From: an uncultured Acidobacteriota bacterium
GTDB taxonomy: Bacteria > Acidobacteriota > Vicinamibacteria > Fen-336
NCBI GenBank assembly: GCA_964561785.1
Contig: CAZLRF010000001.1
Location: 77,201 to 141,200 of the forward strand
Direction: 5' to 3'
Length of the DNA stretch: 64,000 nt
The notes beneath the pieces are model-generated. The model was given only the letters and a program-made list of their open reading frames with translations. It made no database searches and was not told where the DNA came from. The translations under genes and the position numbers were made by a program. Positions 14,188 through 43,038 of this stretch are shown here, one piece after another (position 1 is the first letter of the stretch; each line of letters begins with the position of its first letter).

Positions 14188-14283
14188 TGGGGGTGATGTT
14201 AACGCGGGTGGAGCGATGTAGAATCCGCGAGCCTTTTCCACGCCCAGCCGTCGCCCCGCTCGCACCCGTCGGAGGAGCCGCCC

Positions 14284-14490
14284 GTGATCGGCCGCACGCT
14301 CGCCCACTACCGCATCACCGCCGCGATCGGGGCTGGCGGCATGGGCGAGGTCTACCGCGCCACCGACACGAAGCTCGGCCGCGACGTGGCCCTCAAGGTG
14401 CTCCCGGCCGACACCGCCTCGCGCCCCGACCGGCTGGAGCGATTCCGCCGCGAGGCGCGAGCGGTCGCCGCCCTCAACCACCCGCCGCAT
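14284..14490 (+). pseudogene. Ser/Thr kinase N-terminal fragment (paralogue family relic)
   Basis: GTG 14284 begins [41 protein letters not shown]...ALNHP. Kinase homology stops after ~69 aa. The family-conserved TAGAAT element lies 59 nt upstream. Confidence 0.5.
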
Positions 14491-14535
14491 GACCGACGCC
14501 CTGCGCGAGGCCGGGCTCGACTGACCCCCCTGCAA

Positions 14536-14765
14536 GACCCCGCGTTCGCCCTGTCCTTCGAGGCCGACCGCGTCGAGGTCGCGCGCTCGGGAGACCTCGC
14601 CTACGAGACCGGCTCCTACTCGATGACGATGACCGGCCCGGACAGAAGCCGGCCACCGAGAAAGGCCACTACGTGGTCGTGTGGAGGAAGGGCGCGGACG
14701 GCGCCTGGAAGGTCGTGGTGGACGCGCCGCTGTCCGACCCTCCCGACGCCGCCGCGGGGAAGTGA
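14536..14765 (+). pseudogene. DUF4440/SnoaL-like C-terminal remnant with frameshift
   Basis: [35 protein letters not shown] continues the truncated kinase frame. [33 protein letters not shown] continues in the +2 frame. The shift is at a ccggg run near 14637. No N-terminal half is present. Confidence 0.45.
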
Positions 14766-14818
14766 ACCTGGTCAACTTCAACCTGCGCTCAGACTTCCGG
14801 GGACCAGCGATCGACTCA

Positions 14819-14851
14819 ATTGTGATGTAGATGTATAATCTACATCACAAT
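14819..14851. promoter_or_regulatory. 33-bp palindromic operator containing a TATAAT box and overlapping the vapB start codon
   Basis: ATTGTGATGTAGAT-gtata-ATCTACATCACAAT has perfect 14-bp arms. TATAAT is at 14834-14839. The vapB ATG (14850) is inside the right arm, implying a leaderless or near-leaderless, autoregulated transcript. Confidence 0.5.
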
Positions 14852-15104
14852 GACCAGGACTCAGATCCAGCTGCCCGACGCCCTCTATGCCCAGGCGAAG
14901 CGCATCGCCGAGCGGCAGGAGATGTCGCTCGCCGAGCTCGTGCGCCGGGGACTCGAGCACATGGTCCGGCTGCACGCGGCCGCCGACGGGCCGTCGACGG
15001 GGTGGAGCCTCCCCGACCCCGTCGCCCTCGGGGAGTTCCTCGCCCCGGTCGACGACTGGCGCGAGCTCGCGAGCGCGTCCCGTGTCGCGGACGCCGAGCG
15101 ATGA
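14850..15104 (+). CDS. vapB: type II antitoxin VapB (ribbon-helix-helix)
   Basis: 84 aa. MTRTQIQLPDALYAQAKRIAERQEMSLAELVRRGLEHM is an RHH antitoxin. Its stop overlaps the vapC start (ATGA). Confidence 0.75.
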   Translation: MTRTQIQLPDALYAQAKRIAERQEMSLAELVRRGLEHMVRLHAAADGPSTGWSLPDPVALGEFLAPVDDWRELASASRVADAER

Positions 15105-15535
15105 TCTCCATCGACACGAATGTCCTGCTGTACAGCCTCAACCGGGACTGCCCCGAGCATGCCGCGGCTCGCGCGTTCGTCGAGGACTGCGCGCGCCGGC
15201 CGGACGTGGCGATCGCGGAGCTGGCGCTCGTGGAGCTGTACGTGCTCCTGCGCAACCCCGCGGTCGTGCGCCGGCCCCTCGAGGCCCGGCCCGCCGCCGA
15301 GCTCTGCCAGGCGTTTCGTCGTCACCCCCGCTGGGCGCTCGTCGGCTCCGCCGACGTGATGGACCGCGTCTGGACGGCGGCGGCCCGGCCCGGGGTCGCG
15401 CGACGGCACGTCTTCGACGCCCGCCTCGCCCACACGCTGCTCGACCACGGCGTGACCGAGCTCGCCACCCGCAACGTCCGCGACTTCGAGGGCTTCGGCT
15501 TCGCCCGCGTCTTCGACCCCGTCTCCGGACGCTGA
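15101..15535 (+). CDS. vapC: type II toxin VapC (PIN domain RNase)
   Basis: MISIDTNVLLY... carries the PIN acidic residues (D5, E, D). It overlaps vapB by 4 nt. Confidence 0.8.
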   Translation: MISIDTNVLLYSLNRDCPEHAAARAFVEDCARRPDVAIAELALVELYVLLRNPAVVRRPLEARPAAELCQAFRRHPRWALVGSADVMDRVWTAAARPGVARRHVFDARLAHTLLDHGVTELATRNVRDFEGFGFARVFDPVSGR

Positions 15536-15620
15536 GCGCCGTCTTCCGCGGGCCGGGACGAGGATCTCGCGCAGCCGAGTCCGTCTCGGCCTGAGCCAGT
15601 TCTGATAGCATCGGCGGCTC

Positions 15621-17867
15621 GTGCGCCCGCGAGCCGCCATGACCGCCCTCCTCCCGGCGACCGTCCTCCTGACGGCCGTCCTCGCCGCCCGTGCCACGGC
15701 CGCGGCCTCCCCCGCCGTGGCCCCCGAGACCCCGCCCGCCGCCACCGCCGTGCGCGTCACGACTCCGCCGATCGTCGATGGCGACGTGCTCGGCGACCCG
15801 GCGTGGGCCGCGGCGCCGCCGATCGTCGGCTTCTGGCAGACCGCGCCGTCCGAGGGCGCCCCGGCCTCCGAGCCGACCGAGGTCCGCATCGTCTACACCG
15901 CGGACGCCTTGTACTTCGGCGTCGTCTGCCACGACTCCGACCCCTCCGGGATCGTGGTGAGCGGCAGCCGGCGCGACTCGCCGCTCGACGAGACCGACGC
16001 CTTCCAGATCGTCCTCGACACGTACCGCGACCGCCAGAGCGGCTTCGTCTTCGGCACGAACCCGGCTGGCCTCGAGTACGACGGGCAGATCACGAACGAG
16101 GGCCAGGGCGGCGGGATGGCGGGGCCCGGCGCCGCCGGGGGCTCGCTCACCGGCTTCAACCGGAACTGGGACGGCGTGTGGGCCGTGAAGACCCGCACCG
16201 GGGACTTCGGCTGGAGCGCGGAGTTCGCGATCCCGTTCCGCACGCTGCGCTACCGCGCGGGCGGCGGCGAGTGGGGCATGAACCTCCAGCGCAACATCCG
16301 CCGACGCAACGAGAGCGCGTACTGGGCCCCCCTCCCCCGCCAGTACGACCTGTTCCGCGTCTCCCGGGCCGGCGCCCTCCTGGGCCTCGAGCCGCCGCCC
16401 CCGCGCAACCTGAAGCTGCTGCCCTACGCGCTCGCGGAGGCCACCGAGCGCCCCGCGCTCGGGTCGTCGACGGACTCGCGGGCGGACGCGGGGGGCGACC
16501 TCAAGTGGAGCGTGACCCCGAGCCTCGCCCTCGACGCGACGGTCAACACGGACTTCGCCCAGGTCGAGGTCGACGAGCAGCAGGTGAACCTCGACCGCTT
16601 CAACCTCTTCTACCCCGAGAAGCGGCCGTTCTTCCTCGAGAACGCGGGCCTGTTCTCGGCGGGGTCACCGGGCGAGGTGGACCTGTTCTTCTCGCGCCGG
16701 ATCGGGATCGGGCCGCAGGGCCAGGTGGTCCCGATCGCAGCCGGGGTGCGCCTCTCCGGCAAGCTCGGCGGCCTCAACGTGGGCCTGCTCGACATGCAGA
16801 CGCGCGAGGGCACGACCCTCGTCCCCCCGAGCAACTTCGCGGTCGTGCGCGTCTCGCGGGAGATGCCGAACCGCTCGCGCGCCGGCGTCATCTTCGTCAA
16901 CCGCGCGGGCACGGGCGACCGCTCGCCCGAAGGAGACGTCAACCGCACATTCGGGGCGGACGGCCGGTGGGGCATCGGCCGCTACGGCGCCGTCGAGGGC
17001 TACGCGGCCAAGACCGACACGCCGGGGCTCGTCGGGAAGGACGTCGCCTGGAACCTCGGCGCGAACCTCAGCTCCCCCTCCTGGGAGATGAACGCCGAGT
17101 ACACGGAGGTCCAGGGAAACTTCAACCCGGAGGTGGGCTTCCTCGCCCGCCGCGACTTCCGCAAGCCCGAGGGCCTGCTCCTCTACCGTTACCGCCCGAG
17201 CGGCTTTCTCGGGCTCCTCGAGGTCCGGCCGCACGTGTCCTACCGGGGCTACTGGAAGCCGGACGGGTTCCAGGAGTCGGGCTTTCTCCACGTCGACAAC
17301 CACCTCGAGTGGAGGTCGGGCTGGGAGGTCCACACCGGGATCAACTTCACCCACGAGGGCGTGCGGCAGCCGTTCGAGATCTACCCCGGCGTCGTCGTGG
17401 CCCCGGGGAGCTACTCCAACACCGAGGCCATGCTCGTCGGCATCACGAACCAGGGCGCGCCGCTGAGCCTCGAGGCGCGCGTGACGCTCGGCGGCTTCTT
17501 CGGCGGCAGCCGGGTGAGCGTGGTGAGCACGCTGCGGGGGCGGATCGGCGAGGTCTTCAACACGAGCGTCGACTACTCCCGCAACGACGTGAGCCTGCCC
17601 GAGGGCCGCTTCGTCACGAACCTGCTGCGGATGCGGCTGTCCTACTCGTTCAGCACGCGCGTCTACCTGCAGGCCCTGCTGCAGTACAACGACGTCATCG
17701 ACAACTGGTCGACGAACCTGCGCTTCGGCTGGCTCCACGCCGCGAACACCGGCCTCTTCGTCGTCTACAACGAGAACCGCGACACCGAGAGCGATCCGCT
17801 CGGCATCGGCGTGCGCGACCGCAGCCTCACCGTCAAGTACTCCCACACGTTCGACCTGCTCGACTGA
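15621..17867 (+). CDS. DUF5916 / CBM9-like domain outer-membrane-associated protein
   Basis: Signal peptide, then a CBM9-like N-terminal region (DGDVLGDPAW...). A long beta-rich C-terminal body has DTYRDRQSGFVFGTNP and NFxV..VRxSRE. The size (748 aa) and motifs fit DUF5916 proteins. Confidence 0.7.
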   Translation: MRPRAAMTALLPATVLLTAVLAARATAAASPAVAPETPPAATAVRVTTPPIVDGDVLGDPAWAAAPPIVGFWQTAPSEGAPASEPTEVRIVYTADALYFGVVCHDSDPSGIVVSGSRRDSPLDETDAFQIVLDTYRDRQSGFVFGTNPAGLEYDGQITNEGQGGGMAGPGAAGGSLTGFNRNWDGVWAVKTRTGDFGWSAEFAIPFRTLRYRAGGGEWGMNLQRNIRRRNESAYWAPLPRQYDLFRVSRAGALLGLEPPPPRNLKLLPYALAEATERPALGSSTDSRADAGGDLKWSVTPSLALDATVNTDFAQVEVDEQQVNLDRFNLFYPEKRPFFLENAGLFSAGSPGEVDLFFSRRIGIGPQGQVVPIAAGVRLSGKLGGLNVGLLDMQTREGTTLVPPSNFAVVRVSREMPNRSRAGVIFVNRAGTGDRSPEGDVNRTFGADGRWGIGRYGAVEGYAAKTDTPGLVGKDVAWNLGANLSSPSWEMNAEYTEVQGNFNPEVGFLARRDFRKPEGLLLYRYRPSGFLGLLEVRPHVSYRGYWKPDGFQESGFLHVDNHLEWRSGWEVHTGINFTHEGVRQPFEIYPGVVVAPGSYSNTEAMLVGITNQGAPLSLEARVTLGGFFGGSRVSVVSTLRGRIGEVFNTSVDYSRNDVSLPEGRFVTNLLRMRLSYSFSTRVYLQALLQYNDVIDNWSTNLRFGWLHAANTGLFVVYNENRDTESDPLGIGVRDRSLTVKYSHTFDLLD

Positions 17868-17879
17868 CGGGACCGGCGG

Positions 17880-18308
17880 TCAGGGCGAAGCGCCCGGAAG
17901 GAGCTTCAGGCGCTCGCAGTGCCGCGGCCGCACGACCCCGAAGTGGCGCCGGTCCAGCGTCGCGACCTTCCGCTCGCCGAGCTTCTCGCAGACCGCGATG
18001 ACCGCAGCGTCGACCATGCCGAGATCGAGGTCGGCGTTGTCTCTCTGCAGCTCCACGACACGTTCGAGATCCTCGGCCGCGAGGTGCTCGAGACGATAGG
18101 CGCCCCGCGCGACGTCCTCGACGAAGGTGGACCACACCGCCGGCTGGAGTCGCTTGCGGATCCAGTAGTCCACCTCCACCAGGGTCGGTCCCACGACCAC
18201 CAGCGGCTCGTCGGTCTCCTCGAGCAGCGCGGCACAGCTCGCGTGCGCGGGGTCATCGGCATCGAGGGCAGCCAGGATCGGGCCCGTGTCGAGGACGAGA
18301 GCCATCAC
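17880..18308 (-). CDS. vapC: type II toxin VapC (PIN domain)
   Basis: MMALVLDTGPILAAL... has PIN architecture. Its start overlaps the stop of the upstream antitoxin. Confidence 0.8.
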   Translation of the reverse strand: MMALVLDTGPILAALDADDPAHASCAALLEETDEPLVVVGPTLVEVDYWIRKRLQPAVWSTFVEDVARGAYRLEHLAAEDLERVVELQRDNADLDLGMVDAAVIAVCEKLGERKVATLDRRHFGVVRPRHCERLKLLPGASP

Positions 18309-18529
18309 TGCCGCGCCGGGAGGTCCTCTCTCTCGACGCTTTCCTGCGAGACACCGCCACCGGACCGCCCGATCCCGAGGCGCGGCCTTCGCTCGCGGCG
18401 CAACTCAGCCGCCTTCCTCGCGAGAATCTCTCCGGCGAGGTGAGCCAGAGAGACACCTCGCCGCCTTGCCTCGGCACGAAGCGTCTCGAGGTCTGCCTCG
18501 TTTGCCGCGACCGTCGTCCTCTGAATCAT
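18305..18529 (-). CDS. vapB: type II antitoxin (CopG/RHH-like VapB)
   Basis: The likely start is the second Met (MIQRTTVAANEADLETLRAEARRRGVSLAHL, ATG at 18527-18529). The track ORF extends to 18562. Confidence 0.65.
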   Translation of the reverse strand: MIQRTTVAANEADLETLRAEARRRGVSLAHLAGEILARKAAELRRERRPRLGIGRSGGGVSQESVEREDLPARQ

Positions 18530-18583
18530 GAATCTGATGCTGGCATATGATGCGGAGCCCAACGAGGTTTGCTTCTGCGCGCC

Positions 18584-20293
18584 TCAGAGCGGCCGCACGC
18601 GCGGCCACTCGAGCTCGACGCCCTGACTTCGCAGCGCCTCCTGGAACGCGGCGAGCCGCTTCGGGTCGCGGCGGACCTGGCGCGGCGGCTCCCCCGACTC
18701 CTTGCAGAACGCGGCGAGCGCCCCCGCCGCCTCGCCGATCGCCCACTCCACCGGGTGCAGGCGGTAGCAGCCGTTGGTGATGTGCGTGGTGCCCACGTTC
18801 TTGCAGGCGGGCAGCAGGTTCTCCACCCGTCGCGGGAGGAGGGCCCCGAGGGGAACCTGGAACGGGAGGCTGGAGACGTCGAGGTAGTTGTCGCCGCCCG
18901 TCGTCGGGTGGAGGTCGATGCGGTAGGCGCCGACCCCGACGGAGTCCGGGAAGGCCTCCGCCGTCACCTCCTCGCGCGGCTTCCCGGTCCTCTTCCGCCG
19001 GGCCTCGGTCGAGACGTGCTCCTCCTTGACCGTGAGCTCGGCCCGGATCCGGCGCGACTCGCGGACGTAAGGGGACTTTGCGAGCCCGTCCGCGGTGCCG
19101 ACCACGTCCTCGCGCAGCCGCAGTCCCTTCCATCCCGCACCGCCGTCGGGGCGCGGGGCCTCGGTCTGCATCCAGTAGAGCAGCGACAGGCTGAGCTGCT
19201 TCGCGCGGGCCACCGACCGCGCGCGCTCCTCGCGGGTGCGATCGGAGAGCGGCTCGAGCCAGTAGTCGTTCTGCGGCCAGTTGACGAGCGAGATGCCGCT
19301 CGCGTAGGTCCCGGGGACGAAGCGCTTCGGGTCGGCGATCCGGCGGTAGTCGAACAGGTTGAGGCCCTCCTCGACGGGACCGGCGGGGTCGAAGGCGAGC
19401 GTGCGGGGGGCGAGCGTGATGGGGTGGCTCGTCTGCCACGAGAGCAGCTTCCCCGGCCAGGGCGGCCGGAGCGCGGGCACGTAGTCCCGCCAGAAGCCGT
19501 ACTCCGCGGGCCGCGGGATCGTGTGGTCGGCCCCGGGCACGTAGTCGATCGCGAAGCAGCACGTGAAGGCCTGCTCCGCGTCGGGTCGCGCCACGTCGGG
19601 AGCGCTCTCCTCCCCCGTGTCCGAGCGCGACTCGGCGCCGACCACGTACTCCGTGCCCGTCAGCGGCAGCAGCTCGCCGAGCTCCGTCGCGTCGACGAAG
19701 AGGGGCGCCGCGAGCGTGACCCGCCGGCCCTCGCGGAGGTCCTCGACCGTGACCGCGCGCACGCGGTCGCCGGCCACGTCGGCGGACACCGGCACGTGCT
19801 CGACGAGCAGGCGCAGGCGCCGGCCGCTCACGAACGGCGCGAGCATCTGCGCGAGCACCGCGAGGCCGACCCGCGGCTCGTGGCACAGGGCCGACACCGC
19901 GCCCCCGCCCGGGTTGAGGTGGGCTTCGGCGCGCGCGGCCGCGCTCAGCGGGTAGTGCTCGCGGTAGAAGGCGCGCACGAGGTCGCGGTAGCGCCGGTAG
20001 GAGCGGTTGCAGCCGAAGCTCTCGATCCAGGGGTGCTCGTCGGGGGGCACCGCCTGCGCGCTGACCTGCCCCCCGATCCAGTCGGTCTCCTCGGTCAGGA
20101 TCACGTCGAGGCCCGCCCGGCACGCCGCGAGCGCGGCGGCGCAGCCGCCGAAGCCCCCGCCGACGATCACGAGGTCGGCCGCCAGCTCCCGGACGGGCGT
20201 CCCGAACGCCGCCGCCCGTGCCGGCCGGAAGGCCCCGGCGAGGAGCGTCAGGGCGCTCGACCCGAGGAAGGCACGACGCGTGAATGTGCCCAT
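18584..20293 (-). CDS. TAT-exported FAD-dependent oxidoreductase (PF12831-like)
   Basis: ATG 20291-20293 gives MGTFTRRAFLGSSALTLLAGAF (twin-arginine signal). A Rossmann motif follows (DLVIVGGGFGGCAAALAA). The 569-aa body is typical of FAD oxidoreductases found near glycoside hydrolases. Confidence 0.75.
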   Translation of the reverse strand: MGTFTRRAFLGSSALTLLAGAFRPARAAAFGTPVRELAADLVIVGGGFGGCAAALAACRAGLDVILTEETDWIGGQVSAQAVPPDEHPWIESFGCNRSYRRYRDLVRAFYREHYPLSAAARAEAHLNPGGGAVSALCHEPRVGLAVLAQMLAPFVSGRRLRLLVEHVPVSADVAGDRVRAVTVEDLREGRRVTLAAPLFVDATELGELLPLTGTEYVVGAESRSDTGEESAPDVARPDAEQAFTCCFAIDYVPGADHTIPRPAEYGFWRDYVPALRPPWPGKLLSWQTSHPITLAPRTLAFDPAGPVEEGLNLFDYRRIADPKRFVPGTYASGISLVNWPQNDYWLEPLSDRTREERARSVARAKQLSLSLLYWMQTEAPRPDGGAGWKGLRLREDVVGTADGLAKSPYVRESRRIRAELTVKEEHVSTEARRKRTGKPREEVTAEAFPDSVGVGAYRIDLHPTTGGDNYLDVSSLPFQVPLGALLPRRVENLLPACKNVGTTHITNGCYRLHPVEWAIGEAAGALAAFCKESGEPPRQVRRDPKRLAAFQEALRSQGVELEWPRVRPL

Positions 20294-20371
20294 GACGCGA
20301 CCAAGAATACCCCGGCGGGCCGGGTGCGGCCGCGGTACAATCCCCCGCGGGCCAAGCCCCTCCCCCGACAC

Positions 20372-21994: not shown

Positions 21995-24397
<2,403 letters not shown>

Positions 24398-25305: not shown

Positions 25306-25346
25306 GCGCCGCCTCGCTCCGCGGCCGCCGCGCTACCATCTCCGCC

Positions 25347-28301: not shown

Positions 28302-28331
28302 CTGGCGCGCAGTTGTGGTCTCATCAAAAGT

Positions 28332-30900: not shown

Positions 30901-31101
30901 AGCGCGTGGAGGCGGCCTCCGAGTCCGTCCCAGCGCCTGGCCACCACCATCGCCCCCGCGGGCACCCGCGTCATCTCCGCCATCGGTCGGTGGCGATTGT
31001 AGACGCGTCCGCCGCTCCGGCCCTGGGGTAAAATCCCAGCCTCACGTCCCCCGTAGAACCCAGCCTCGACCAACGCCGAGCGGACCCGGAGGAGACCGAG
31101 C

Positions 31102-31908
31102 CTGATCGGAGAGACACTCGCGCACTACCGAATCACCGCCGCCACAGGCGCCGGGGGCATGGGGGAGGTGTACCGGGCCGCCGACACGAAGCTCGGGCGG
31201 GAAGTGGCGCTCAAGGTCCTGCCCGCTGCCCTCGCCTCCGACCCCGATCGGCTCGGCCGCTTCGAGCGCGAGGCGCGGGTCCTCGCGTCCCTCAACCACT
31301 CCGGCATCGCCCACCTCTACGGCTTCGAGAGCGCCCCGCTCCCCGACGGCGCGACGGCACACGTCCTCTTGATGGAGCTCGTCCCTGGCGAGGACCTCGC
31401 CGAGCGGCTCCGGCGCGGGCCCGTGCCCGTCGACGAGGCGATCGCGATCGCGAGGCAGGTGGCCGAGGCGCTCGAAGAAGCACACGAGAAGGGCATCGTC
31501 CACCGCGACCTCAAGCCGGCGAACGTCAAGGTCACGCCGGACGGCAAGGTGAAGGTCCTCGACTTCGGCCTCGCCAAGGCCTAGTCGGGCGAGAGCCCCG
31601 GAGCGACGTCGAGCGCCGATCTCTCGCAGTCCCCCACCCTCGCCGCGACCGGCACCGCGGCCGGGATCATCCTCGGCACCGCGGCCTACATGTCCCCCGA
31701 GCAGGCCCGGGGCAAGGCCGTCGACAAGCGCGCCGACATCTGGGCCTTGGGCGTCCTTCTGTTCGAGATGCTGACCGGCCGGCGCCTCTTCGAGGGCGAG
31801 ACGGTGAGCGACACGCTCGCGCCGGGGTCGATGGGGGGCGCGCCACGCCCTGAGGCCGCTCGCGCGGGGCGTCTCAGCGGCCGAGCGGGTCGACGACCAG
31901 AACCGTGA
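31102..31908 (+). pseudogene. Ser/Thr kinase paralogue with CTG at the start position and an in-frame TAG
   Basis: [30 protein letters not shown]...[27 protein letters not shown], then TAG at 31582-31584. It continues in the same frame with [47 protein letters not shown] and ends at 31908 with no C-terminal domain. About 85% identical to the intact kinase at 40990. Confidence 0.6.
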
Positions 31909-32088
31909 TGTCGTCTTGCCGCGGGACGGAACGAGGCCGCCACGCCGCGACCTCCGAGAGCAGCCTCCGCGACAGCTCCTCCGGCGTCGCCGAGCGGGTA
32001 CTCGCGCAGGACCTCGTCGAGGCGCGCGTCGCCGAAGGGCTCGCCGGCGGCACGATACCAGCCCTGGGCGCGCCGCCGACCCCGGGCT

Positions 32089-32676
32089 TCAGGCCAGGAC
32101 GTCGGCGACGGGAACGGGCTCGGGCCCGAACGGCTCGCCCGCGACCGACTCGGCGAGGGCGAACGCCGGCCCGGCGACCATCCGGCCCCGCACGTTCGTG
32201 AAGGTCTCGACCCGCTGGCGCTCGCAGTCGACGAGCCAGAGCGAGCCCACCCCCATCGTGCCGTAGGCCTCGGTCTTCACGCCCCGGTCGGTCGCCTCCG
32301 TGCCGGGCGAGAGCACCTCCGCCACCCAGTCCGGCATCAGCGTGACCGGCGAGAGGGCCATGTCGGGCCAGCCGGCCCCGCTTCGGCGCCAGCCCGCGAC
32401 GTCCGGAACGAGCCGGCTGAGCGCCCGCTCCGACCGCAGCTCCGGCTCCACCGCGAAGAACCAGTCCGGGGGCTCGCCACCCCGGCTGCGTCCGAAGCGC
32501 TGGTGGAGCGCGCCGAAGAGGCGTCCCTGGGCGGCCCCGTGCCGCGGCCTGGGCCGGGGCGACATCAGGTAGACCCCGGACGCGATCTCGCCGCTCACCC
32601 CTTCGGGCTCGTTCTCGAGACGCGCCTCGAGCGCCCGGAAGTGGCGGAGCAGGCTGTCGTCGACCGCAGTGGCCAT
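32089..32676 (-). CDS. Uma2 family endonuclease (DUF820, putative restriction-endonuclease-like)
   Basis: 196 aa from ATG 32674-32676. Typical Uma2 pattern ...EPEGVSGEIA......TDRGVKTEAY...GVGSLWLVD. Confidence 0.7.
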   Translation of the reverse strand: MATAVDDSLLRHFRALEARLENEPEGVSGEIASGVYLMSPRPRPRHGAAQGRLFGALHQRFGRSRGGEPPDWFFAVEPELRSERALSRLVPDVAGWRRSGAGWPDMALSPVTLMPDWVAEVLSPGTEATDRGVKTEAYGTMGVGSLWLVDCERQRVETFTNVRGRMVAGPAFALAESVAGEPFGPEPVPVADVLA

Positions 32677-32784
32677 GGCCTCGCCACGAGGATAGCACCA
32701 GAGCACAGGCCTCGGGCGGCGTGCGGTAGAATGCCGGCTCCGTTCCCCGTTGAACCCAACCGTCGCCGCCCGGAGGCCCCGACC

Positions 32785-33311
32785 CTGATCGGAGAGACCC
32801 TCGCCCACGACCGCGTCACCGCCCCGCTCGGCGCGGGGGGAATGGGCGAGGTCTTCTGCGCCACCGACACGAAGCTCGGCCGCGAGGTGGCCCTCAAGCT
32901 GCTGCCGGGGGAGCTCGCGGACCGATTCGGATCGCCTCGCCCGCTTCGAGCGCGAGGCCAGGGTCCTCGCCTCGCTCAACCACCCCGGCATCGCTCACCT
33001 CTACGGCTTCGAGAGCGCGACGCTCGCCGACGGCACGACGGCCCACGTCCTCGTCATGGAGCTCGTCGAGGGAGAGGACCCGGATGATGGTCGTCGAGCT
33101 GGGGCCCGGGGACCCTCTCGAGGCGTCCCGGCCGCAAGTCCTCTTCGAGGGCGAGTTCGCCGGAGGAGTCGGTCGCGAGCGAGGCTACGACGTCACCCCG
33201 GACGGGCAGCGGTTCGTCGTGGCCCGCGGGCGCTCGCAGGGCGGGGGCGAGGTCAACGTCGTCCTCAACTGGCTCGACGAGCTTCGCCTCCGCTCGTCGG
33301 AGTCGAGGTGA
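32785..33311 (+). pseudogene. Ser/Thr kinase paralogue collapsed by internal deletion (N-terminal lobe joined to the extreme C-terminus, with frameshift)
   Basis: CTG-ATC-GGA start (LIGETLAH...[26 protein letters not shown]...[14 protein letters not shown]...VMELVEGEDP), then a frame change at similar sequence (gtcgtcgagctggggcccggggaccc). It ends with ...YDVTPDGQRFVVARGRSQGGGEVNVVLNWLDELR, the C-terminal end of the propeller-type kinases. Confidence 0.55.
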
Positions 33312-33534
33312 CGCCGCGCCTGCAGGTCGTGCGCGTCCCCTCAGCTCGGCGTCTCGCCCGAGATCTCGCGCCAGAGGTCCGAGACGCCGAGCTCGGCGGC
33401 CCACCGCAGGGCCGTAGCTTGGCACCCGGGCCCGAGGCCCGGCGGATCGAAAGCCCGCTTCGCTGCTGGTAGAATCCCCCGTCCCCCGTGCACCGCACCA
33501 ATCGTCATCCCCCGGAACCCGAGGGCTTCGCGTC

Positions 33535-35823
33535 GTGATCGGCCGCACGCTCGCCCACTACCGCGTCACCGCCGCGATCGGCGCCGGCGGGATGGGCGAG
33601 GTCTACCGCGCCACCGACACGAAGCTCGGCCGCGACGTGGCCCTCAAGGTCCTGCCGGCCGAGATGGCCTCGCACCCGGAGCGCGTCGAGCGGTTCCGGC
33701 GTGAAGCGAAGGCCCTCGCCGCGCTCGACCACCCCGGCGTCGTCGGCGTGTACTCGGTCGAGGAAGCGGACGGCGTCCACTTCCTGACCATGCAGCTCGT
33801 CGAGGGCCAGCCGCTCGACCAGCTCATCCCCGAGGGTGGGATGCCGGTCGAGCGGATCCTCGAGATTGCTTCGGCGCTCGCCGAGGCCCTGGCCGCCGCT
33901 CACGAGAGGGGCATCGTCCACCGCGACCTCAAGCCGGCGAACGTCATGGTCGCCAGAGACGGGCGCCTGAAGGTCCTCGACTTCGGCCTCGCGCGAACGA
34001 GCGGAGGCCCGGCGGACGCGCCCGGCGGGTCGGAGCTGCCCACCGACCTTCGCACGCGCGAGGGCGTCGCGATGGGGACGGTGCCGTACATGTCGCCCGA
34101 GCAGCTCCAGGGGCGGGCCGTGGACGGCCGCTCGGACATCTTCTCCCTGGGCGTCGTCCTCTACGAGATGGCGACGGGTCGGCGGCCGTTCCGCGCCGAC
34201 AGCGCGGCGGCGCTGATGTCGGCCATCCTGCGGGACGACCCGGAGCCTGCGGTCCGGCTTCGCTCCGATCTGCCCCCGGCCCTTTCCCGCGTGATCGAGC
34301 GCTGCCTCGCGAAGGAGCCCGCGGCGCGCTTCCAGTCGGCCGCGCACGTGAGGTCCGCCCTCGAGGGCGCGCCGGAGGCGGCGGGCCGCGTGGCTCTCGC
34401 GGCCCGAGAGGCCGACACGAAGTCGATCGTGGTCCTCCCGTTCGCCAACCTGAGCCCGGATCCCGACACCGAGTACTTCAGCGACGGGCTGACCGACGAG
34501 ATCATCACCGACCTGTCACGCGTGCGGGCCCTGCGCGTGATCTCCCGGTCCTCGGCGATGCGCCTCAAGGGCGACGGGCGCAGCGTCGGGGAGATCGGCC
34601 GAGAGCTCGCCTGCCGGTACGTGCTCGAAGGAAGCGTGAGGCGCGCCGCGAGCACCCTGCGCATCACGGCCCGGCTGGTGGACGCGCCGAACGACGTCCA
34701 GCTCTGGGCCGACAAGTACGGAGGCACGCTCGACGACGTGTTCGACATCCAGGAGCGGGTGTCGCGGTCGATCGTGGACGCCCTCGAGATCCGGCTGACG
34801 CCGCAGGAGGCCGCGCAGCTCGCCGAGCGGCCGATCGCCGACGCTCGCGCCCAGGAGTGCTACCTCCGTGCGCGGAGCGAGATCTGGAGCTTCCTGCCGG
34901 GCGGCCTGGAGCGGGCCATCGGCCACCTGGAGGCCGCGCTCCGGCTGGTCGGCGAGAACGCCCTCGTCTACCAGGGGCTCGGCGAGGCCTACTTCCAGCA
35001 CGTCAACATCGGGGTCGCGGGCGGCCGGGAGGAGGAGCTCGTCCGGAAGGCCGAGTGGTGCGCGGACAGGATCTTCGCGCTCGAGCCCGACTCGCCGCGC
35101 GGGCACCTCGTCCGTGCCAACACCCAGCTGGCGCGGGGCGACGTCCACGGCTGCGGCCGGAGCCTGAGGCGCGCGCTGCAGGTCTTCCCGAACGACATCC
35201 CGGCGCTGCAGCTCTACACCCACGTGCTCGGCTGGCTCACCGGGAAGCCCGACGCGGCGGCGCCGGTGGCGGCGCGGCTCCTCGACGTCGACCCGCTCGG
35301 TGCGATCAGCCTCCTGATGGCCGCCATGATGCGGCTGTTCACGGGCCGGTTCGGCGATGCGCTCGAGCCCGCGCGCCGCATGTTCGAGCTCGACCCGGTC
35401 ACCCCGGTCTGCCGCGCGAACTACGCGATGGCCCTGGCGTACGACCGGCGGATCGAGGAGGCGGAGGCGCTGTGCGAGGGGGTGTCGGCTCAGCCGGATT
35501 CGGACGTCGGCACCTGGCAGATGGGACTCTGGCGGGCGGCCTGGCGAGGGGACCGTGCGGAGGTCCTGCGGCTCGCCGAAGGGCCCTACCAGCAGGCGGC
35601 CGCATGGGATGCGGAGATCCCCTGGCTCCTCGCGAGCGCCCACGCCGCGGTCGGCGCCACGGAGGAGGCGCTTCACTGGCTCGACCGCGCGATCGACGGC
35701 GGGATGATCAACTACCCCTTCCTCTCCGAGCACGACCGCAACCTCGACGGCCTGCGCGGCGACCCGCGGTTCGGCCGCCTGATGGAGCGGGCCCGGCGGG
35801 AATGGGAGCGGTTCGACGTCTGA
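33535..35823 (+). CDS. Ser/Thr protein kinase with C-terminal TolB-N-like and TPR domains (intact family member)
   Basis: GTG start gives [64 protein letters not shown]. Then the VVLPFANLS...DGLTDEIITDLSR TolB-N-like region and TPR-like repeats. 762 aa. Confidence 0.85.
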   Translation: MIGRTLAHYRVTAAIGAGGMGEVYRATDTKLGRDVALKVLPAEMASHPERVERFRREAKALAALDHPGVVGVYSVEEADGVHFLTMQLVEGQPLDQLIPEGGMPVERILEIASALAEALAAAHERGIVHRDLKPANVMVARDGRLKVLDFGLARTSGGPADAPGGSELPTDLRTREGVAMGTVPYMSPEQLQGRAVDGRSDIFSLGVVLYEMATGRRPFRADSAAALMSAILRDDPEPAVRLRSDLPPALSRVIERCLAKEPAARFQSAAHVRSALEGAPEAAGRVALAAREADTKSIVVLPFANLSPDPDTEYFSDGLTDEIITDLSRVRALRVISRSSAMRLKGDGRSVGEIGRELACRYVLEGSVRRAASTLRITARLVDAPNDVQLWADKYGGTLDDVFDIQERVSRSIVDALEIRLTPQEAAQLAERPIADARAQECYLRARSEIWSFLPGGLERAIGHLEAALRLVGENALVYQGLGEAYFQHVNIGVAGGREEELVRKAEWCADRIFALEPDSPRGHLVRANTQLARGDVHGCGRSLRRALQVFPNDIPALQLYTHVLGWLTGKPDAAAPVAARLLDVDPLGAISLLMAAMMRLFTGRFGDALEPARRMFELDPVTPVCRANYAMALAYDRRIEEAEALCEGVSAQPDSDVGTWQMGLWRAAWRGDRAEVLRLAEGPYQQAAAWDAEIPWLLASAHAAVGATEEALHWLDRAIDGGMINYPFLSEHDRNLDGLRGDPRFGRLMERARREWERFDV

Positions 35824-35836
35824 AGGAGACCGTTTT

Positions 35837-35867: not shown

Positions 35868-35869
35868 AC

Positions 35870-36109: not shown

Positions 36110-36115
36110 GTCGCG

Positions 36116-37271: not shown

Positions 37272-37564
37272 CGCGGGCCTCGCCGCCGCCCCCCGTAGAC
37301 CCGCGGGCGGCGCCGTTGGCGCGCCGCCACCGCCTCCTCGACGCCGTCGAAGAAGGGGTCGTCGGCCTCCAGCCAGCCCCGGACCGCCGCCAATCCCTCG
37401 CCCGGGTCCCCCGATCCGGGCGGGACCAGACGGGCCATCGGCCGGCCGCGGCGTGTGATGAGGACCGTCTCGCCCCCGTAGGCCACGCGTCCCAGGAGGT
37501 CCGAGAGCCGCCTCTTGGCCTCCGCGACGTTCACGGCCTCCACCGTCGCCCTCCCCACGTGCAC
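37268..37564 (-). CDS. phd: Phd/YefM family antitoxin
   Basis: ...VEAVNVAEAKRRLSDLLGRVAYGGETVLITRRGRPMARLVP is the Phd/YefM fold signature. It overlaps the vapC start by 4 nt. An ATCATA...TATGAT inverted repeat lies upstream (37575-37600). Confidence 0.7.
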   Translation of the reverse strand: MHVGRATVEAVNVAEAKRRLSDLLGRVAYGGETVLITRRGRPMARLVPPGSGDPGEGLAAVRGWLEADDPFFDGVEEAVAARQRRRPRVYGGRRRGPR

Positions 37565-37654
37565 CTCCTACATGATCATCATAGTCTACTTGGATATGAT
37601 GGTCACGAGACCGACGGCCCGCGTCGCTCCGAGGACGCTTCGAGGGAGGCACCC

Positions 37655-38500: not shown

Positions 38501-38509
38501 GACGAGGAG

Positions 38510-39212
38510 CTACCGCTCCCGCCGCGGGCGGCCCTCGGACGCCGGGGCGGCCTTCACCGCCACGAAGACCACGTGCCGGCGCCCTCCCGCTCCGGAGCGG
38601 CGGGCGACCCGGACGGCGGACGCGTCGAACCCGCTGTCCCGGAGGCGGCGCAGGTAGCGCTCGTCCGGTCCCGTCGCCCAGACCGCGAGCGCGCCGTTCG
38701 CCCGGAGGGCGCCGTGGCACGCGACGATGCCGTTCGCGTCGTAGAGTCCCGCGTTCGCCTCGTGGATGAGCGCGTCGGGACCGTTGTCCACGTCCAGCAG
38801 GATCAGGTCGTAGGCGGCGCGCGCCTCCCGGATGCGCTCCCGGACGTCGCCCACGCGCACGCTGACGCGCGGGTCCTCGAGCGGCCTCCCGGCCAGGTGG
38901 CCCACGTGGACGCGGTTCCACTCCACCACGGAAGCGGACTGCTCGGCGAGCACGACTCTTCCGTGCGGAGGGAGGAGGTCGAGGGTCGCGCGCAGGGAGA
39001 ACCCGAGGCCGAGCCCTCCGACCAGCGCCGTCCCCGCGTGGCTCGCCCTCGCGAAGGCGAGGCGGGCCAGCTCGTCCTCGGACCCATGGGCGCGGCTCGA
39101 CATGAGGACGAGGCCGTCGAAGCCCACCTCCCACTCGGTGCCCCGCCGCGACAGCGTGAGCCGGGTGCCGTCGGCGGTCCGCGCCTCGTCCACCCGGATC
39201 CAGGGCAGCATG
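38510..39212 (-). CDS. spermidine-synthase-like class I SAM-dependent methyltransferase
   Basis: Only the C-terminal 234 aa of the 733-aa track ORF are protein-like. Methyltransferase motif I (ALVGGLGLGFSLRATL) and the acidic post-I residue pattern (DLILLDVDNGPD) are present. Confidence 0.65.
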
Positions 39213-39540
39213 CCCGCCTCAGTGCTCGACGACCTTGCCCGGCTCGAGCGTGCGGTCGAAACCGGAGGCGGCGGGCATGGGTGCGACGCTACCACGCCTG
39301 CCGCGGCCGGGCCAGCGGCCTCCTCCTGGCCTGCAGCACGCAGAGCGCCGGGAACTCCGTCTCGCCGGACGGTCGCCGCTTCCTCGTCCGGCTCCAGGAC
39401 GCGAGGGCGATCCCCACTCAGGTCCGCGGGTTGCAGAGCTGGCTCGAGGAGCTCGAGGCGAAGGTGCCCGTCTCCGAGTAGACGGTCGGCCGCTCCTGAT
39501 CGGAGGAGCGTGGCGTCCGCCGACGGGACGGGTCGCTCGT

Positions 39541-39714
39541 GTGCTGCCCGGGGCGGGCGTGGACGAGACGCTCGATCGCGAGGCCCGGCTCCGCTCCTTC
39601 GACGAGGCCACGGCACGGCAGGAGTCCCGCAACCGTGCCCGGCGCCGCGCGCGGCGGGTCGGAGAACGGGGTTGGACCCGCGAGGAGCTGTACGACCGTG
39701 CCTGCCCTCGTTGA
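39541..39714 (+). CDS. putative small antitoxin partner of the downstream PIN gene
   Basis: 57-aa ORF from GTG 39541 ending ...ERGWTREELYDRACPR. It overlaps the PIN gene start by 17 nt. Family assignment is uncertain. Confidence 0.4.
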   Translation: MLPGAGVDETLDREARLRSFDEATARQESRNRARRRARRVGERGWTREELYDRACPR

Positions 39715-40129
39715 CACCAACGTCCTCGTCTACCGGTTCGACCCGCGCGATCCCGGGAAACAGCGCCGGGCGACGGGACTGCTGCGGGGCGGGATCGAGG
39801 GACGGTCGTTGTATCTGGCACACCAGACGATCGTCGAGTTCGTGGCCGCGGTGACGCGGCCGCTGTCCGGTGGACGCCCTCTCCTGACCCTGGCCGAAGC
39901 CGTGCGGGAGACGGAGGATCTCTGCGACCAGTTCGTCGTCCTGCTGCCCGACGAACTGCTGGTCCGCACCGCCCTGCGGGGCACGGCCGCGTACCAGCTC
40001 GCCTGGTTCGACGCCCACATGTGGGCCTACGCCGAGCGCTACGGAATCCCGGAGATCCTGTCCGAGGACTTCCAGCACGGGCGCCGCTACGGGGGCGTGC
40101 GCGCCGTCAACCCGTTCCTGGCCGGCTGA
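39698..40129 (+). CDS. PIN domain protein (VapC-like toxin)
   Basis: GTG 39698 gives VPALVDTNVLVYRFD...WFDAHMWAYAERYGIPEILSEDFQHGRRYGGVRAVNPF with the PIN acidic residues conserved. Confidence 0.75.
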   Translation: MPALVDTNVLVYRFDPRDPGKQRRATGLLRGGIEGRSLYLAHQTIVEFVAAVTRPLSGGRPLLTLAEAVRETEDLCDQFVVLLPDELLVRTALRGTAAYQLAWFDAHMWAYAERYGIPEILSEDFQHGRRYGGVRAVNPFLAG

Positions 40130-40383
40130 TCGCGGCCGAAACGCCGCTGGATCGAAGTTGCGGCCGAGGGACAGGGACGGCTCGAGTCGATGCGAGAATG
40201 TCGCGATAGCAGACCGATGCGAGCCACCGCCGCCCTGCTCACGATCGCCCTCGTGCCGGAGGCCGGGGCCTCCTGGGGGCGCACGCAGACGCCGCCCGAG
40301 GTGACCCAGGCCGACCGGGCGCTCCTCTCGTCCCTCGAAGGCCCCCGGTGCGTCCTTCGCCCGGCTGCGCGAATTCGCCCGGC

Positions 40384-40645
40384 AGAGCGAGCGAGCGCGA
40401 TCGCGATCGACGAGGCGATCGCCATCGCGAAGCACATCGCCGAGGCGCTCGAGGCCGCTCACGAGAAGGGCATCGTCCACCGCGACCTCAAGCCGGCGAA
40501 CGCCAAGCTCACGCCCGATGGCTCCCCGGACGGCCGCCGCTTCGTCTTCGTCGAGCCCGCGCGTGCGAAGGACGAGAGCACCCGCATCGACGTGGCCCTC
40601 CACTGGGCCCGGCACCTCGGGGCGGGGCGGCCCGGCGCGCCGTGA
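40384..40645 (+). pseudogene. Ser/Thr kinase remnant (catalytic-loop segment fused to the C-terminal end)
   Basis: ...[39 protein letters not shown] joins directly to SPDGRRFVFVEPARAKDESTRIDVALHWARHL. The junction sits at a PDG motif shared by the kinase core ([13 protein letters not shown]) and the propeller tail (SPDGQRFV). Confidence 0.5.
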
Positions 40646-40926
40646 TCTCCGCACGCCTCGTCGCCGCGCTGCTGCTGGCGACGCCGGTCCTCGGCACGGC
40701 GGAAAGGCCACCCTTGCTGCTCGACGACTTCTCCAGACCCGACGGGCGTTCCGCGCTCGGCACCGCGTGGCGGGCCTTCACCGACCAGGTGATGGGCGGC
40801 GTCTCGACCCAGTCGGTCGGCCGGGAGACGGTCGAGGGAGAGCGGGCCCTCCTGAGCGTCGGCATCGTCGCGTCGAAGCGAGCCTTCCGAGCCGACGTCG
40901 CGGTCTCGAGGATCGAGCTCTACTGA
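40642..40926 (+). pseudogene. CIA30-domain protein N-terminal fragment (truncated)
   Basis: LLLDDFSRPDGRSALGTAWRAFTDQVMGGVSTQSV... matches the start of CIA30 family proteins. It stops after 94 codons, about half the expected length. Confidence 0.4.
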
Positions 40927-40989
40927 GTCGAGCCGCCTCGGACGAGCGCTTCGAGGTCCAGCGTATAATCGCCACCTTCCCCAGTTCGA

Positions 40990-43038
40990 GTGCGTCGTCG
41001 CTGCGGTGGAGCGAGGAAGCTTCGCCGACGGGAGGCGATCCTGATCGGGCAGATCCTTTCGCACTACAAGGTCACCTCGGCCCTCGGGGCCGGGGGGATG
41101 GGTGAGGTCTACCGCGCCACCGACACGAAGCTCGGCCGCGAGGTCGCGCTCAAGCTCCTCCCCGAGGCCTTTGCCTCCAACCCCGATCGCCTCGCCCGCT
41201 TCGAACGAGAAGCGAAGGTCCTCGCCTCGCTCAACCACCCGGGCATCGCGCACCTCTACGGCTTCGAGAGCGCGCGCCTCGAGGGAGGGCCCACGGCTCA
41301 CTTCCTGGCCATGGAGCTCGTGGAAGGGGAAGACCTGGCCGAGCGGCTGAAGCGCGGGGCGATCCCCGTCGACGAGGCCGTCGCGATCGCGAAGCAGGTG
41401 GCCGAGGCCCTCGAGGAGGCGCACGAGAAGGGCATCGTCCACCGGGACTTCAAGCCCTCCAACGTGAAGGTGACGCCGGAGGGCAAGGTCAAGGTCCTCG
41501 ACTTCGGCCTCGCCACGGCCTTCACGGGCGAAGGGCCGGGCGCCGCGGCGAGCGCCGACCTGTCGCAGTCTCCCACGCTGGCCCGGACCGGCACCGCGGC
41601 CGGGATCATTCTCGGCACCGCGGCCTACATGTCGCCCGAGCAGGCCCGCGGGAAGCCCGTCGACAAGCGGACCGACATCTGGGCCTTCGGCGTCGTGCTC
41701 TTCGAGATGCTGAGCGGCCGGCGGCTCTTCACCGGCGAGACGGTGAGCGACGTGCTCGCGTCGGTGCTGAAGACCGAGCCCGACTGGAGGGCGCTGCCGG
41801 CGGCGACGCCCCCCCGCATCCGCGGAATGCTGCGGCGCTGCCTCGCCCGCGGCCCGAAGCTGCGGCTGAGGGACATCGGGGACGCGCGGCTCGTCCTCGA
41901 GGAGGCGCTGGCGGGCGCGCCGGGGGAGGAGTCGGCCCCGCCCGGGTCGACGCGCCCGTCCCGCGAGCGCACCTGGAAGGCGCTCGCCGCGGCCTCGACG
42001 CTCCTGGCCGTGGCGTTCGGGGCCTTGTGGGCGGGCTCGTCGCGCCGCACGTCGAGCCCGACGCCCGCGCTGCGGGCGTCGATCCCGCTCCCCGAGGGCC
42101 TTCACCTCGACGGGTTCGGGCCGCCGGTCCTCGCCCTCTCCCGCGACGGGCGGACCCTCGCGTTCGTGGCGCGAGGCGCGACGGGGGCCCCGCGCCTGTA
42201 CGTACGCCCGCTCGACGCCGCGCAGGCCGTCCTCGTCCCGGGCAGCGACACCGCGGAGGGACCCTTCTTCTCTCCCGACGGGCGGTGGGTGGCCTTCGCC
42301 GTCGGCACCTCGCTGGCCGGAGGGCAGCCTCCCGAGCTGCGCAAGTACTCGCTGGAGACGCAACTCACCCAGACGATCGGCCCGCTGGAGGACTACTTCG
42401 GCGGCGTGTGGCGCGAGGACGACTCGATCCTGTTCGTGGGGGCGGTCCCCGGGGGCCTGTGGACCGTTCCGGCCAGCGGCGGCGCGCCCCGGCTGCTCGT
42501 GGAGCGATTCCGCCGGGGCGATCGCGAGGAGGCCATGCGGGTGGCCTGGCCCGACCTTCTGCCCGACGGTCGGACCCTCCTCCTCAACGACGCGAACTCC
42601 CCCGCAGAGTCCCACCTCGTGACGGTGGACCTGGCGAGCGGCGAGATGAAGGACCTGGGCCTGCGAGGCTGGGGGGCTCGCTGGGTGTCCACCGGCCACG
42701 TCGTGTACGCGGGGCTCGACGCCTCCCTGATGGCGGTGCCGTTCGACGCGAAGGATCTCCGCCCGAAGGGGACGCCGGTGGCTCTGGCCCCCGACACCGC
42801 GCTCGCCCGCCTCAACGCTCCGGCCGTCGCGTTCTCGCACACGGGCACGCTGGTCCGCGCGACCGGGTACCTGCAGGGGAGCCGCCGGGAGCCCATGCAC
42901 GCGGTGGCCTTGACTGCCGCGGGGGCGAGGAGGCTCCTCTCGGCGGAGGCGGCCCTGTACGGGCGCGGCCTCGCGCTGCCCGAGTTCATGATCGAGATCG
43001 AGCTCGAGGCCCACAAGCCCCGGGACGCCGGCCGGTAG
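40990..43038 (+). CDS. Ser/Thr protein kinase with C-terminal TolB-like beta-propeller (intact family member)
   Basis: Kinase core [74 protein letters not shown] segment ALAAASTLLAVAFGALWA. Repeated SPDGR/DGRTL units with the NW-type C-terminal end. The first in-frame canonical start is GTG 40990, but the family-conserved position is CTG 41041, 5 nt after GGGAGG. Confidence 0.8.
   Translation: MRRRCGGARKLRRREAILIGQILSHYKVTSALGAGGMGEVYRATDTKLGREVALKLLPEAFASNPDRLARFEREAKVLASLNHPGIAHLYGFESARLEGGPTAHFLAMELVEGEDLAERLKRGAIPVDEAVAIAKQVAEALEEAHEKGIVHRDFKPSNVKVTPEGKVKVLDFGLATAFTGEGPGAAASADLSQSPTLARTGTAAGIILGTAAYMSPEQARGKPVDKRTDIWAFGVVLFEMLSGRRLFTGETVSDVLASVLKTEPDWRALPAATPPRIRGMLRRCLARGPKLRLRDIGDARLVLEEALAGAPGEESAPPGSTRPSRERTWKALAAASTLLAVAFGALWAGSSRRTSSPTPALRASIPLPEGLHLDGFGPPVLALSRDGRTLAFVARGATGAPRLYVRPLDAAQAVLVPGSDTAEGPFFSPDGRWVAFAVGTSLAGGQPPELRKYSLETQLTQTIGPLEDYFGGVWREDDSILFVGAVPGGLWTVPASGGAPRLLVERFRRGDREEAMRVAWPDLLPDGRTLLLNDANSPAESHLVTVDLASGEMKDLGLRGWGARWVSTGHVVYAGLDASLMAVPFDAKDLRPKGTPVALAPDTALARLNAPAVAFSHTGTLVRATGYLQGSRREPMHAVALTAAGARRLLSAEAALYGRGLALPEFMIEIELEAHKPRDAGR

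Follow-up and report, generated by a model that had tools for sequence, protein, structure and literature searches.

The 64,000-nucleotide stretch analysed here (the window; contig CAZLRF010000001.1 of assembly GCA_964561785.1) carries a group of paralogous Ser/Thr kinase genes, three copies of which have CTG at the position of the conserved first codon. We propose that this CTG is probably a working start codon. The G+C content is 70-79% throughout the window and 73% in the genome, and the host looks, from its sequence, like a Vicinamibacteria-like member of the Acidobacteriota. The closest matches to the window kinases were found in Vicinamibacteria and other Acidobacteriota metagenome-assembled genomes, the best match among the species representatives searched being 75% identical; an exact look-up of the 33535 kinase gave no match. 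Using tblastn with the 33535 kinase and full-length homologues, eight kinase-related loci were located (genes are referred to by the position of their first codon):

14284..14484, + strand: kinase N-terminal fragment of 67 amino acids with a GTG start, continuing into a frameshifted DUF4440/SnoaL remnant up to 14838
21995..24397, + strand: full-length kinase with TPR repeats and a different N-terminus, outside the IGxTLxHY group
31102..31821, + strand: kinase pseudogene with CTG at the conserved start, an in-frame TGA at 31582-31584, and homology ending at 31821
32785..33083, + strand: kinase pseudogene ("kinase A") with a CTG start, a frameshift near 32920, and a deletion after 33083 relative to the full-length gene of locus L169
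33535..35823, + strand: full-length Ser/Thr kinase ("kinase B") of 762 amino acids with TPR repeats and a GTG start
40430..40522, + strand: kinase catalytic-loop scrap of 31 amino acids
41041..43038, + strand: Ser/Thr kinase with part of a PD40 propeller, CTG start, mosaic origin, 3'-truncated
49978..52338, + strand: full-length kinase with a different N-terminus and an ATG start

A preliminary description of this DNA had counted five intact kinases and four or more decayed copies sharing one N-terminus. It was found that only five of the eight loci carry this N-terminus (IGxTLxHY) and that a single one of them, 33535, is full-length; premature stops, frameshifts or truncations mark 14284, 31102, 32785, 40430 and the 3' end of 41041 as pseudogenes or remnants. 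In 41041 the kinase domain is complete, while homology to relatives of about 900 amino acids stops at 42978, leaving about 260 amino acids missing, and an FMO-like gene adjoins beyond that point. The source annotation of this gene is a 646-amino-acid protein (P0001) that starts at ATG 41098. Against the Pfam Pkinase model (PF00069, gathering cut-off 31.7 bits) 33535 scored 168.5 bits and 41041 scored 154.7 bits, both above the cut-off, and the GxGxxG loop, the VA(I/L)K lysine, HRD and DFG were all read in the two translations. The 14284 fragment scored 27.2 bits, under the cut-off, because it spans only model positions 1-58. The match to the model starts at residue 9 when residues are numbered from the CTG or GTG. 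Upstream of the five IGxTLxHY copies and of 49978 the following elements were read:

14219..14224, + strand: TAGAAT -10 box of the 14284 remnant
14225..14283, + strand: C-rich leader of 14284, with GGAGGAG at 14271-14277, 6 nt before GTG
31029..31034, + strand: TAAAAT -10 box of the 31102 pseudogene
31035..31101, + strand: leader of 31102, with an in-frame TAG at 31054-56 and, 7 nt before CTG, GGAGGAG at 31088-31094; in-frame ATG, GTG and TTG are absent
32727..32732, + strand: TAGAAT -10 box of the 32785 pseudogene
32772..32776, + strand: GGAGG Shine-Dalgarno sequence of 32785, 8 nt before CTG
33470..33475, + strand: TAGAAT -10 box of the 33535 kinase, with the sole acceptable -35 element (TCGAAA at 33447, 17-nt spacer)
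33521..33525, + strand: GAGGG Shine-Dalgarno sequence of 33535, 9 nt before GTG
40964..40969, + strand: TATAAT -10 box of the 41041 kinase, from which six related leaders are homologous
40970..41040, + strand: conserved non-coding leader of 41041, with GGGAGG at 41030-35, 5 nt before CTG; it contains GTG 40990
49952..49957, + strand: TATACT box, 26 nt before ATG 49978 of the kinase with a different N-terminus

These readings bear out several points of the preliminary description: the first codons are GTG at 14284 and 33535 and CTG at 31102, 32785 and 41041, and all five copies have a Shine-Dalgarno sequence at a spacing of 5-9 nt, within the 5-10 nt that had been given. Its hexamer coordinates stand for 14219, 31029, 32727, 33470 and 40964, but TATACT begins at 49952 rather than 49951 and serves the 49978 gene, whose N-terminus differs, instead of a member of the IGxTLxHY family.

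The TAnAAT hexamer had further been described as a conserved element of the kinase family. In the window TANAAT occurs 11 times, compared with 2.1 +/- 1.5 in 100 dinucleotide shuffles, none of which reached 11, and most of the 11 are located just upstream of gene starts. Among them are TATAAT 14834 (before ATG 14850), TAGAAT 28342 (before GTG 28389) and TACAAT 56395 (before ATG 56412), none of which belongs to a kinase gene. As the hexamer stands in front of non-kinase genes too, it is the general -10 box of this organism and not a family-specific element, and it is conspicuous because the genome is so rich in G+C. Across 79 high-G+C family loci the density of TANAAT was 3.57/kb in the 110 nt upstream of the start and 0.038/kb inside the genes, a 93-fold difference. 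A scan of the window copies for a TTGACA-like -35 element 16-18 nt before the -10 box passed only TCGAAA at 33447, and in the six leaders of the 41041 type, which align from the TATAAT box to the start, no -35 conservation was seen, the conserved sequence ending just upstream of the -10 box. Promoters and ribosome-binding sites in this kinase family are ordinary, and it is the CTG start that is noteworthy.

The distance from box to start in the 79 loci is bimodal, with one class at 12-30 nt, which would be leaderless or nearly so, and a leadered class at 58-110 nt. The short class uses ATG, GTG or TTG, whereas every CTG start with a TANAAT box falls in the long class, as do the five IGxTLxHY copies of the window (58-77 nt). 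In a separate set of relatives a TATAAT, TATACT or TAGACT box ends 6-10 nt before the conserved TTG (L011, L014, L033, L064, L152 and L164) or CTG (L114), and these look from their sequence like leaderless or near-leaderless UUG and CUG starts.

The C-rich leaders noted earlier in several copies are seen in four of the five, the 41041 leader being the exception; C makes up 45% and G 28% of the leaders, whose C-G skew is 0.23 compared with 0.035 +/- 0.068 for random segments (p ~0.001). An Rfam search of the window at gathering scores matched no family. Folding stability of the leaders did not go beyond that of shuffled sequence (z-scores -1.2 to +1.2), and among the four or six sequences that could be aligned, in which variation is too small to make the negative firm, no pair had changed on both sides and two consensus folds disagreed. 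On these grounds two ideas, sequestration of the Shine-Dalgarno sequence by the C-rich 5' end and a hairpin at GGUGGAGC...GCUCCGCC, were dropped, each being no more than a possibility. The simplest reading is that C-rich, G-poor leaders remain unstructured and leave the Shine-Dalgarno sequence accessible. Leaders of the 41041 type from other assemblies differ from one another at 2-5 of about 70 positions, while the adjacent gene has a proportion of synonymous differences (pS) of 0.25-0.43. Compared with the window copy they show 10-18 differences. This high conservation could reflect functional constraint or gene conversion. Four of the six leaders contain a mini upstream open reading frame (uORF), ATG TCG CGT CGT CGC TGA (MSRRR*), namely those of L163 (1474-1491), L165 (~4250), L167 and L168; the homologous region of the window is 40985-41007, which has no ATG there. 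In L165a a 2-nt insertion extends the mini-uORF to a TGA that overlaps the CTG start.

A first line of evidence that CTG is used comes from relatives of the window kinases. At least eight other assemblies have CTG at the homologous start position of open reading frames (ORFs) of 778-914 codons. The CTG-start genes read in related loci were as follows (lengths counted from CTG):

L001: 905 codons
L002: ORF reaches the contig end
L163a: 885 codons
L165a: 778 codons
L166: about 900 codons, second N-terminus type
L167: 885 codons
L168: 890 codons
L169a: 914 codons
L169b, L163b, L079, L083 and L085: ORFs reach the end of the fetched sequence

In L001, L165a, L079, L166 and the 31102 copy of the window there is no in-frame ATG, GTG or TTG between the upstream stop and the CTG. 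Sequencing error as the source of the CTG was ruled out, as it recurs in independent NCBI, ENA and JGI assemblies. Among the best 120 matches, which served as the set of close homologues, 11 are annotated from the downstream sequence MGEVY and so appear truncated; DNA was examined for six of these (P0030, P0042, P0081, P0108 and P0120 lie outside this sample), and five had CTG at the conserved start (P0001, P0005/L001, P0006/L002, P0080/L165 and P0088/L166), the sixth (P0090/L164) having TTG. Of the homologues annotated with N-terminal extensions all four examined had CTG (P0062/L163, P0083/L167, P0039/L168 and P0085/L169), and for P0085 the false start called was the ATG within a TAGAATG of the type seen at 32727. 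In all, a CTG start was verified in nine of the 120 closest homologues, and likely occurs in about 14.

It was also shown that the sequence changes its character at the CTG. In 13 CTG-start genes the 18 codons that follow it (codons 2-19) have a pS of 0.449 and a proportion of nonsynonymous differences (pN) of 0.124, giving a pN/pS of 0.28, with a G+C content at third codon positions (GC3) of 0.91. The 18 in-frame codons before it have a pN/pS of 0.98 and a GC3 of 0.69. This shift places the boundary between non-coding and coding sequence at the CTG. Over whole genes the ratio of nonsynonymous to synonymous substitution rates (dN/dS) was 0.255 for the pair L001 and L002, both with CTG starts, and comparing either of them with the window gene gave 0.30.

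A third line of evidence is the Shine-Dalgarno sequence. In a sample of 147 family genes that were retrieved regardless of start codon, ATG was found in 97, GTG in 25, TTG in 17 and candidate CTG in four (~3%), with four ambiguous. A GGAGG-type Shine-Dalgarno sequence at a spacing of 5-9 nt precedes 14 of 15 CTG genes, and the start codons differ in mean Shine-Dalgarno pairing energy and in the share of genes with a match of at least 4 nt:

CTG: -8.8 kcal/mol, 93%
GTG: -4.1 kcal/mol, 54%
ATG: -2.6 kcal/mol, 27%
TTG: -2.05 kcal/mol, 18%

The Shine-Dalgarno sequence of CTG genes was stronger with p = 2e-7 (Mann-Whitney), and with p = 0.003 when a single gene per independent lineage was used (n = 7).

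Taken together, the retention of CTG in full-length relatives under selection, the stronger Shine-Dalgarno sequence and the coding signature that begins at the CTG make it likely that CTG is a working, Shine-Dalgarno-compensated start, that is, CUG initiation, a rare but known mechanism that recurs in this kinase family. Of the two possibilities raised in the preliminary description, functional CUG initiation thus finds comparative support. From such comparisons we infer that CUG is decoded in vivo, as well as the transcription start sites and the resulting expression level. We envisage that each paralogous Hanks-type Ser/Thr kinase gene is transcribed from its own sigma-70-type promoter with a TAnAAT -10 box, giving an mRNA with a C-rich, G-poor and weakly structured leader of 52-71 nt that ends in a strong Shine-Dalgarno sequence 5-9 nt before the first codon. 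fMet-tRNA would then initiate directly on CUG, a weak codon made workable by the strong, well-spaced Shine-Dalgarno sequence on a leadered mRNA; where genes stand in tandem, translational coupling through a CTGA stop/start overlap may contribute in some cases. TTG or GTG starts are the probable source of the CTG, which would have arisen from them repeatedly, in genes of low expression and high redundancy.

Several considerations weigh against CUG initiation. All organisms concerned are uncultured and the evidence is comparative only, and all three CTG copies in the window, which represent two leader lineages and not three independent events, are damaged. In 41041 and in its close homologue P0121 an in-frame GTG lies open 17 codons upstream, and initiation may conceivably take place at the neighbouring ATC instead. 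Phylogenetically, the CTG genes do not count as independent of one another; we estimate at least six origins. Moreover, among annotated bacterial starts CUG has a share of 0.024%, and its output in E. coli is 0.86% of that of AUG (PMC11497404); it was not selected as a start in mycobacteria (PMC4633059).

How far CUG initiation extends beyond the kinases was considered as well. The preliminary description had suggested that it is functional in this organism; this appears to hold for the kinase family but not organism-wide, in that the other window ORFs examined need no such start. Among 31 ORFs of high GC3 in the window no other CTG start was found, a CTG preceded by a Shine-Dalgarno sequence being present only in the 31102 remnant, and in the other high-GC3 ORFs examined the stretch before the first canonical start appears non-coding. 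In this small sample, CTG use looks family-specific. A broader idea, which we consider unlikely, is that the Acidobacteriota studied here are less discriminating than model bacteria at the first base of the start codon, such that all four NTG codons serve and mRNAs with no leader, or almost none, can also be read from UUG and occasionally from CUG. The cause could lie in the initiator tRNA, through an altered anticodon stem, or in a different IF3. Neither the window nor 26 related loci yielded a tRNA gene, and hence no initiator tRNA. Were such relaxed use of NTG real, the kinases would show only a part of what is common to the whole lineage, and these genomes would contain many mis-annotated N-termini.

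If CUG is not the start, the 41041 gene could begin at the in-frame GTG 40990, with the CTG being an ordinary internal leucine codon behind a 17-residue extension. The reading frame is open from this GTG, the call for P0121, which clusters with P0002 (91% identical to the window kinase), includes this extension too (VRRRCGGARQPRRREAI), and in L163, L167 and L168 the gene callers likewise chose a GTG 9-10 codons upstream. In the leaders of L163, L165a, L167 and L168, however, the counterpart of the TGC at 41005-07 of the window is an in-frame TGA, and L165b, which has the same leader, carries a 1-nt frame-changing indel and has TTG in place of the CTG. What is conserved in the leader is therefore its nucleotides and not its codons, and the open frame from GTG 40990 is accidental, owing to a change from TGA to TGC; P0121 shares this accident. 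L165a moreover lacks any canonical start before the CTG. GTG 40990 itself has no Shine-Dalgarno sequence and lies only about 14 nt from the expected 5' end, while GGGAGG sits 5 nt before the CTG and not before the GTG. The 17 codons of the extension have a GC3 of 0.71 (hand count) compared with 0.93-0.95 in the gene, and the near-neutral pN/pS ahead of the CTG given above argues against translation in the same way. A start at GTG 40990 is thus distinctly improbable, and of the intact kinase that had been described as running from 40990, the CTG at 41041 with its GGGAGG holds up, whereas the gene is 3'-truncated and the GTG belongs to the leader.

It was also proposed that the CTG marks start-codon decay preceding pseudogenisation, in copies that are no longer translated and are on their way to being lost. 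The disruption of every CTG copy in the window would fit such a view, as would the rapid turnover of the family with its many fragments and the very poor performance of CUG as an initiator in E. coli and mycobacteria (PMC11497404, PMC4633059). Dead starts are nonetheless hard to reconcile with the long CTG ORFs in at least eight other assemblies, with dN/dS values of 0.25-0.30 and the low pN/pS directly after the CTG, or with a Shine-Dalgarno sequence that is stronger, not weaker, before CTG. The clearest case is L169, which matches the window at 95-96.5% nucleotide identity over 32019-33083 and 33536-35038 and in which the counterpart of 32785 (96.5% identical) is a full-length gene of 914 codons that has the TAGAATG leader, GGAGG and CTG in common with it. 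In 32785, therefore, the CTG predates the damage, and decay as the origin of the CTG has only a slim chance of being correct. The window copies were disrupted by deletions, a nonsense codon and a frameshift and not by way of the start codon; their damage (an internal deletion, a nonsense codon with truncation, and a 3' truncation) would instead reflect birth-and-death turnover and recombination within the family.

A still slimmer chance is given to initiation at the CTG by termination and reinitiation at the TGA of a CTGA overlap, without direct binding of the 30S subunit. Such an overlap with an upstream stop is present in L002 (a Rieske/FMN-reductase gene) and L169b (the upstream kinase), the uORF of the L165a leader ends at a TGA overlapping the CTG, and kinase B has GTG in the window, where it has its own promoter, but CTG in the upstream-coupled counterpart in L169. 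The last contrast hints that coupling helps some CTG starts. Yet most CTG genes have a -10 box and leader of their own with no ORF running into the CTGA, the short uORF, present in four leaders and missing from the window, ends 12-13 codons ahead of the CTG, and any CTG followed by ATC creates the TGA automatically. Finally, a start at the downstream ATG (Met20, of GAGGMGEVY), from which P0001 and 10 others among the best 120 matches were called, is hardly credible, since it would delete positions 1-11 of the Pfam kinase model, and so the first beta strand together with half the glycine-rich loop, ignores the purifying selection and coding-type GC3 of codons 2-19, and lacks a Shine-Dalgarno sequence. 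To our knowledge, gene finders such as Prodigal and GeneMark do not consider CTG as a start, and the calls at Met20 were therefore forced.

Recombination has left further traces in the region. Most of window kinase A has been replaced by a 453-nt segment (33084-33535) that carries a new TAGAAT promoter. Kinase B, whose CTG overlaps the kinase A stop (CTGA) in L169, has a GTG with its own promoter in the window. No Pfam domain was found in this segment, and the only similarity seen was a short one, of 33186-33287 to the 3' ends of propeller-kinase genes. The 41041 kinase (window 40960-42978) is itself a recombinant: starting at -80 it resembles, at 85-95%, the L163a/L165a type, and past about +680 the L001/L002 type, the switch near +680 nt lying at the end of the kinase domain. 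The breakpoints of remnant homology at 31821/31822, 33083/33084 and 42978 coincide with the ends of synteny to L169. A Uma2-family gene (32089-32994, - strand) lies between the kinase remnants, and the order kinase-Uma2-kinase recurs in L163, L167 and L169. Uma2, PIN and RHH genes and other remnants also occur in the region, which appears to be variable, its kinase paralogues undergoing birth-and-death turnover.

Three other features of the window were noted:

13800..14187, - strand: DUF488 gene with ATG 14187 as its start (MAIRIVRLGSPR...), a frame shift near a C5/G3 run at ~14150, and a TAACAT box 8 nt before the ATG, divergent from the kinase promoter
14826..15535, + strand: a perfect palindrome, GTGATGTAGAT-GTATA-ATCTACATCAC, across TATAAT 14834; ATG 14850, 10 nt past this box, opens an 84-amino-acid RHH_5 protein, followed by a PIN-domain ORF (15002-15535)
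56395, + strand: TACAAT, 11 nt before ATG 56412 of a 1293-amino-acid gene (N-terminus MAILRLPGG...), a leaderless-type promoter

The DUF488 gene, at first an apparent CTG-start case, turned out to be a frameshift and is either a pseudogene or an assembly error. The module at 14826-15535 looks like a toxin-antitoxin system with its operator over a leaderless-type promoter. The 1293-amino-acid gene, whose N-terminus looks PurL-like by eye, is probably a housekeeping gene.

CUG is the start codon that bacteria avoid most, and a family in which it recurs and persists together with a strong Shine-Dalgarno sequence would offer natural cases for learning what makes CUG usable. CUG initiation is already known but rare, and its frequency within one family is unusually high. 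In practical terms, the database entries for these kinases either lack residues 1-19, and with them some of the ATP-binding loop (11 of the 120 closest homologues), or carry spurious N-terminal extensions. In Acidobacteriota metagenome-assembled genomes such mis-called starts have effects on domain annotation, on structure prediction and on the calling of pseudogenes.

Leaderless genes with a TANNNT motif about 12 nt upstream were reported to make up ~13% of Acidobacteria genes (Zheng et al. 2011, PMC3160421). Many kinases studied here, as well as the window genes at ATG 14850 and ATG 56412, likewise have a box 12-30 nt before the start, whereas the five IGxTLxHY copies are leadered. Leaderless translation requires AUG or GUG in E. 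coli, mycobacteria and Deinococcus (PMC4633059, PMC4007540), and the TTG of several leaderless-type relatives is unusual compared with these model organisms. According to Belinky, Rogozin and Koonin (2017, PMC5622118), a stronger Shine-Dalgarno sequence tends to make up for a weak start codon. Like their weak codons, the weakest start class here has by far the strongest Shine-Dalgarno sequence; their study covered AUG, GUG and UUG only, and the kinase family extends the pattern to CUG, beside a split into leaderless and leadered genes.

Ribosome profiling of Caulobacter crescentus assigned CTG starts to 0.7% of genes (PMC4117421), and in Deinococcus deserti CTG and TTG starts were found on leadered mRNAs, one CTG start being confirmed by an N-terminal peptide (PMC4007540). 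Common to these cases and ours is a rare near-cognate start on leadered mRNAs of high-G+C bacteria that is missed by standard gene finders, while in the kinases it is recurrent within one paralogous family, is conserved across species and rests on comparative evidence. The infC gene of E. coli has an AUU start, through which IF3 regulates its own synthesis. A deliberately poor start codon that sets or regulates expression would be the point of likeness; the codon is another one, the kinases are not translation factors, and we have no evidence here for autoregulation or a role of IF3. Like other expanded Ser/Thr kinase families of the Acidobacteriota, with C-terminal PD40/TolB-like propellers or TPR repeats, the window kinases show the same architecture and N-terminus, and as in L163, L167 and L169 they stand in tandem arrays with interspersed Uma2 and PIN genes. 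The proteins themselves are ordinary, and their interest lies in the mode of expression.

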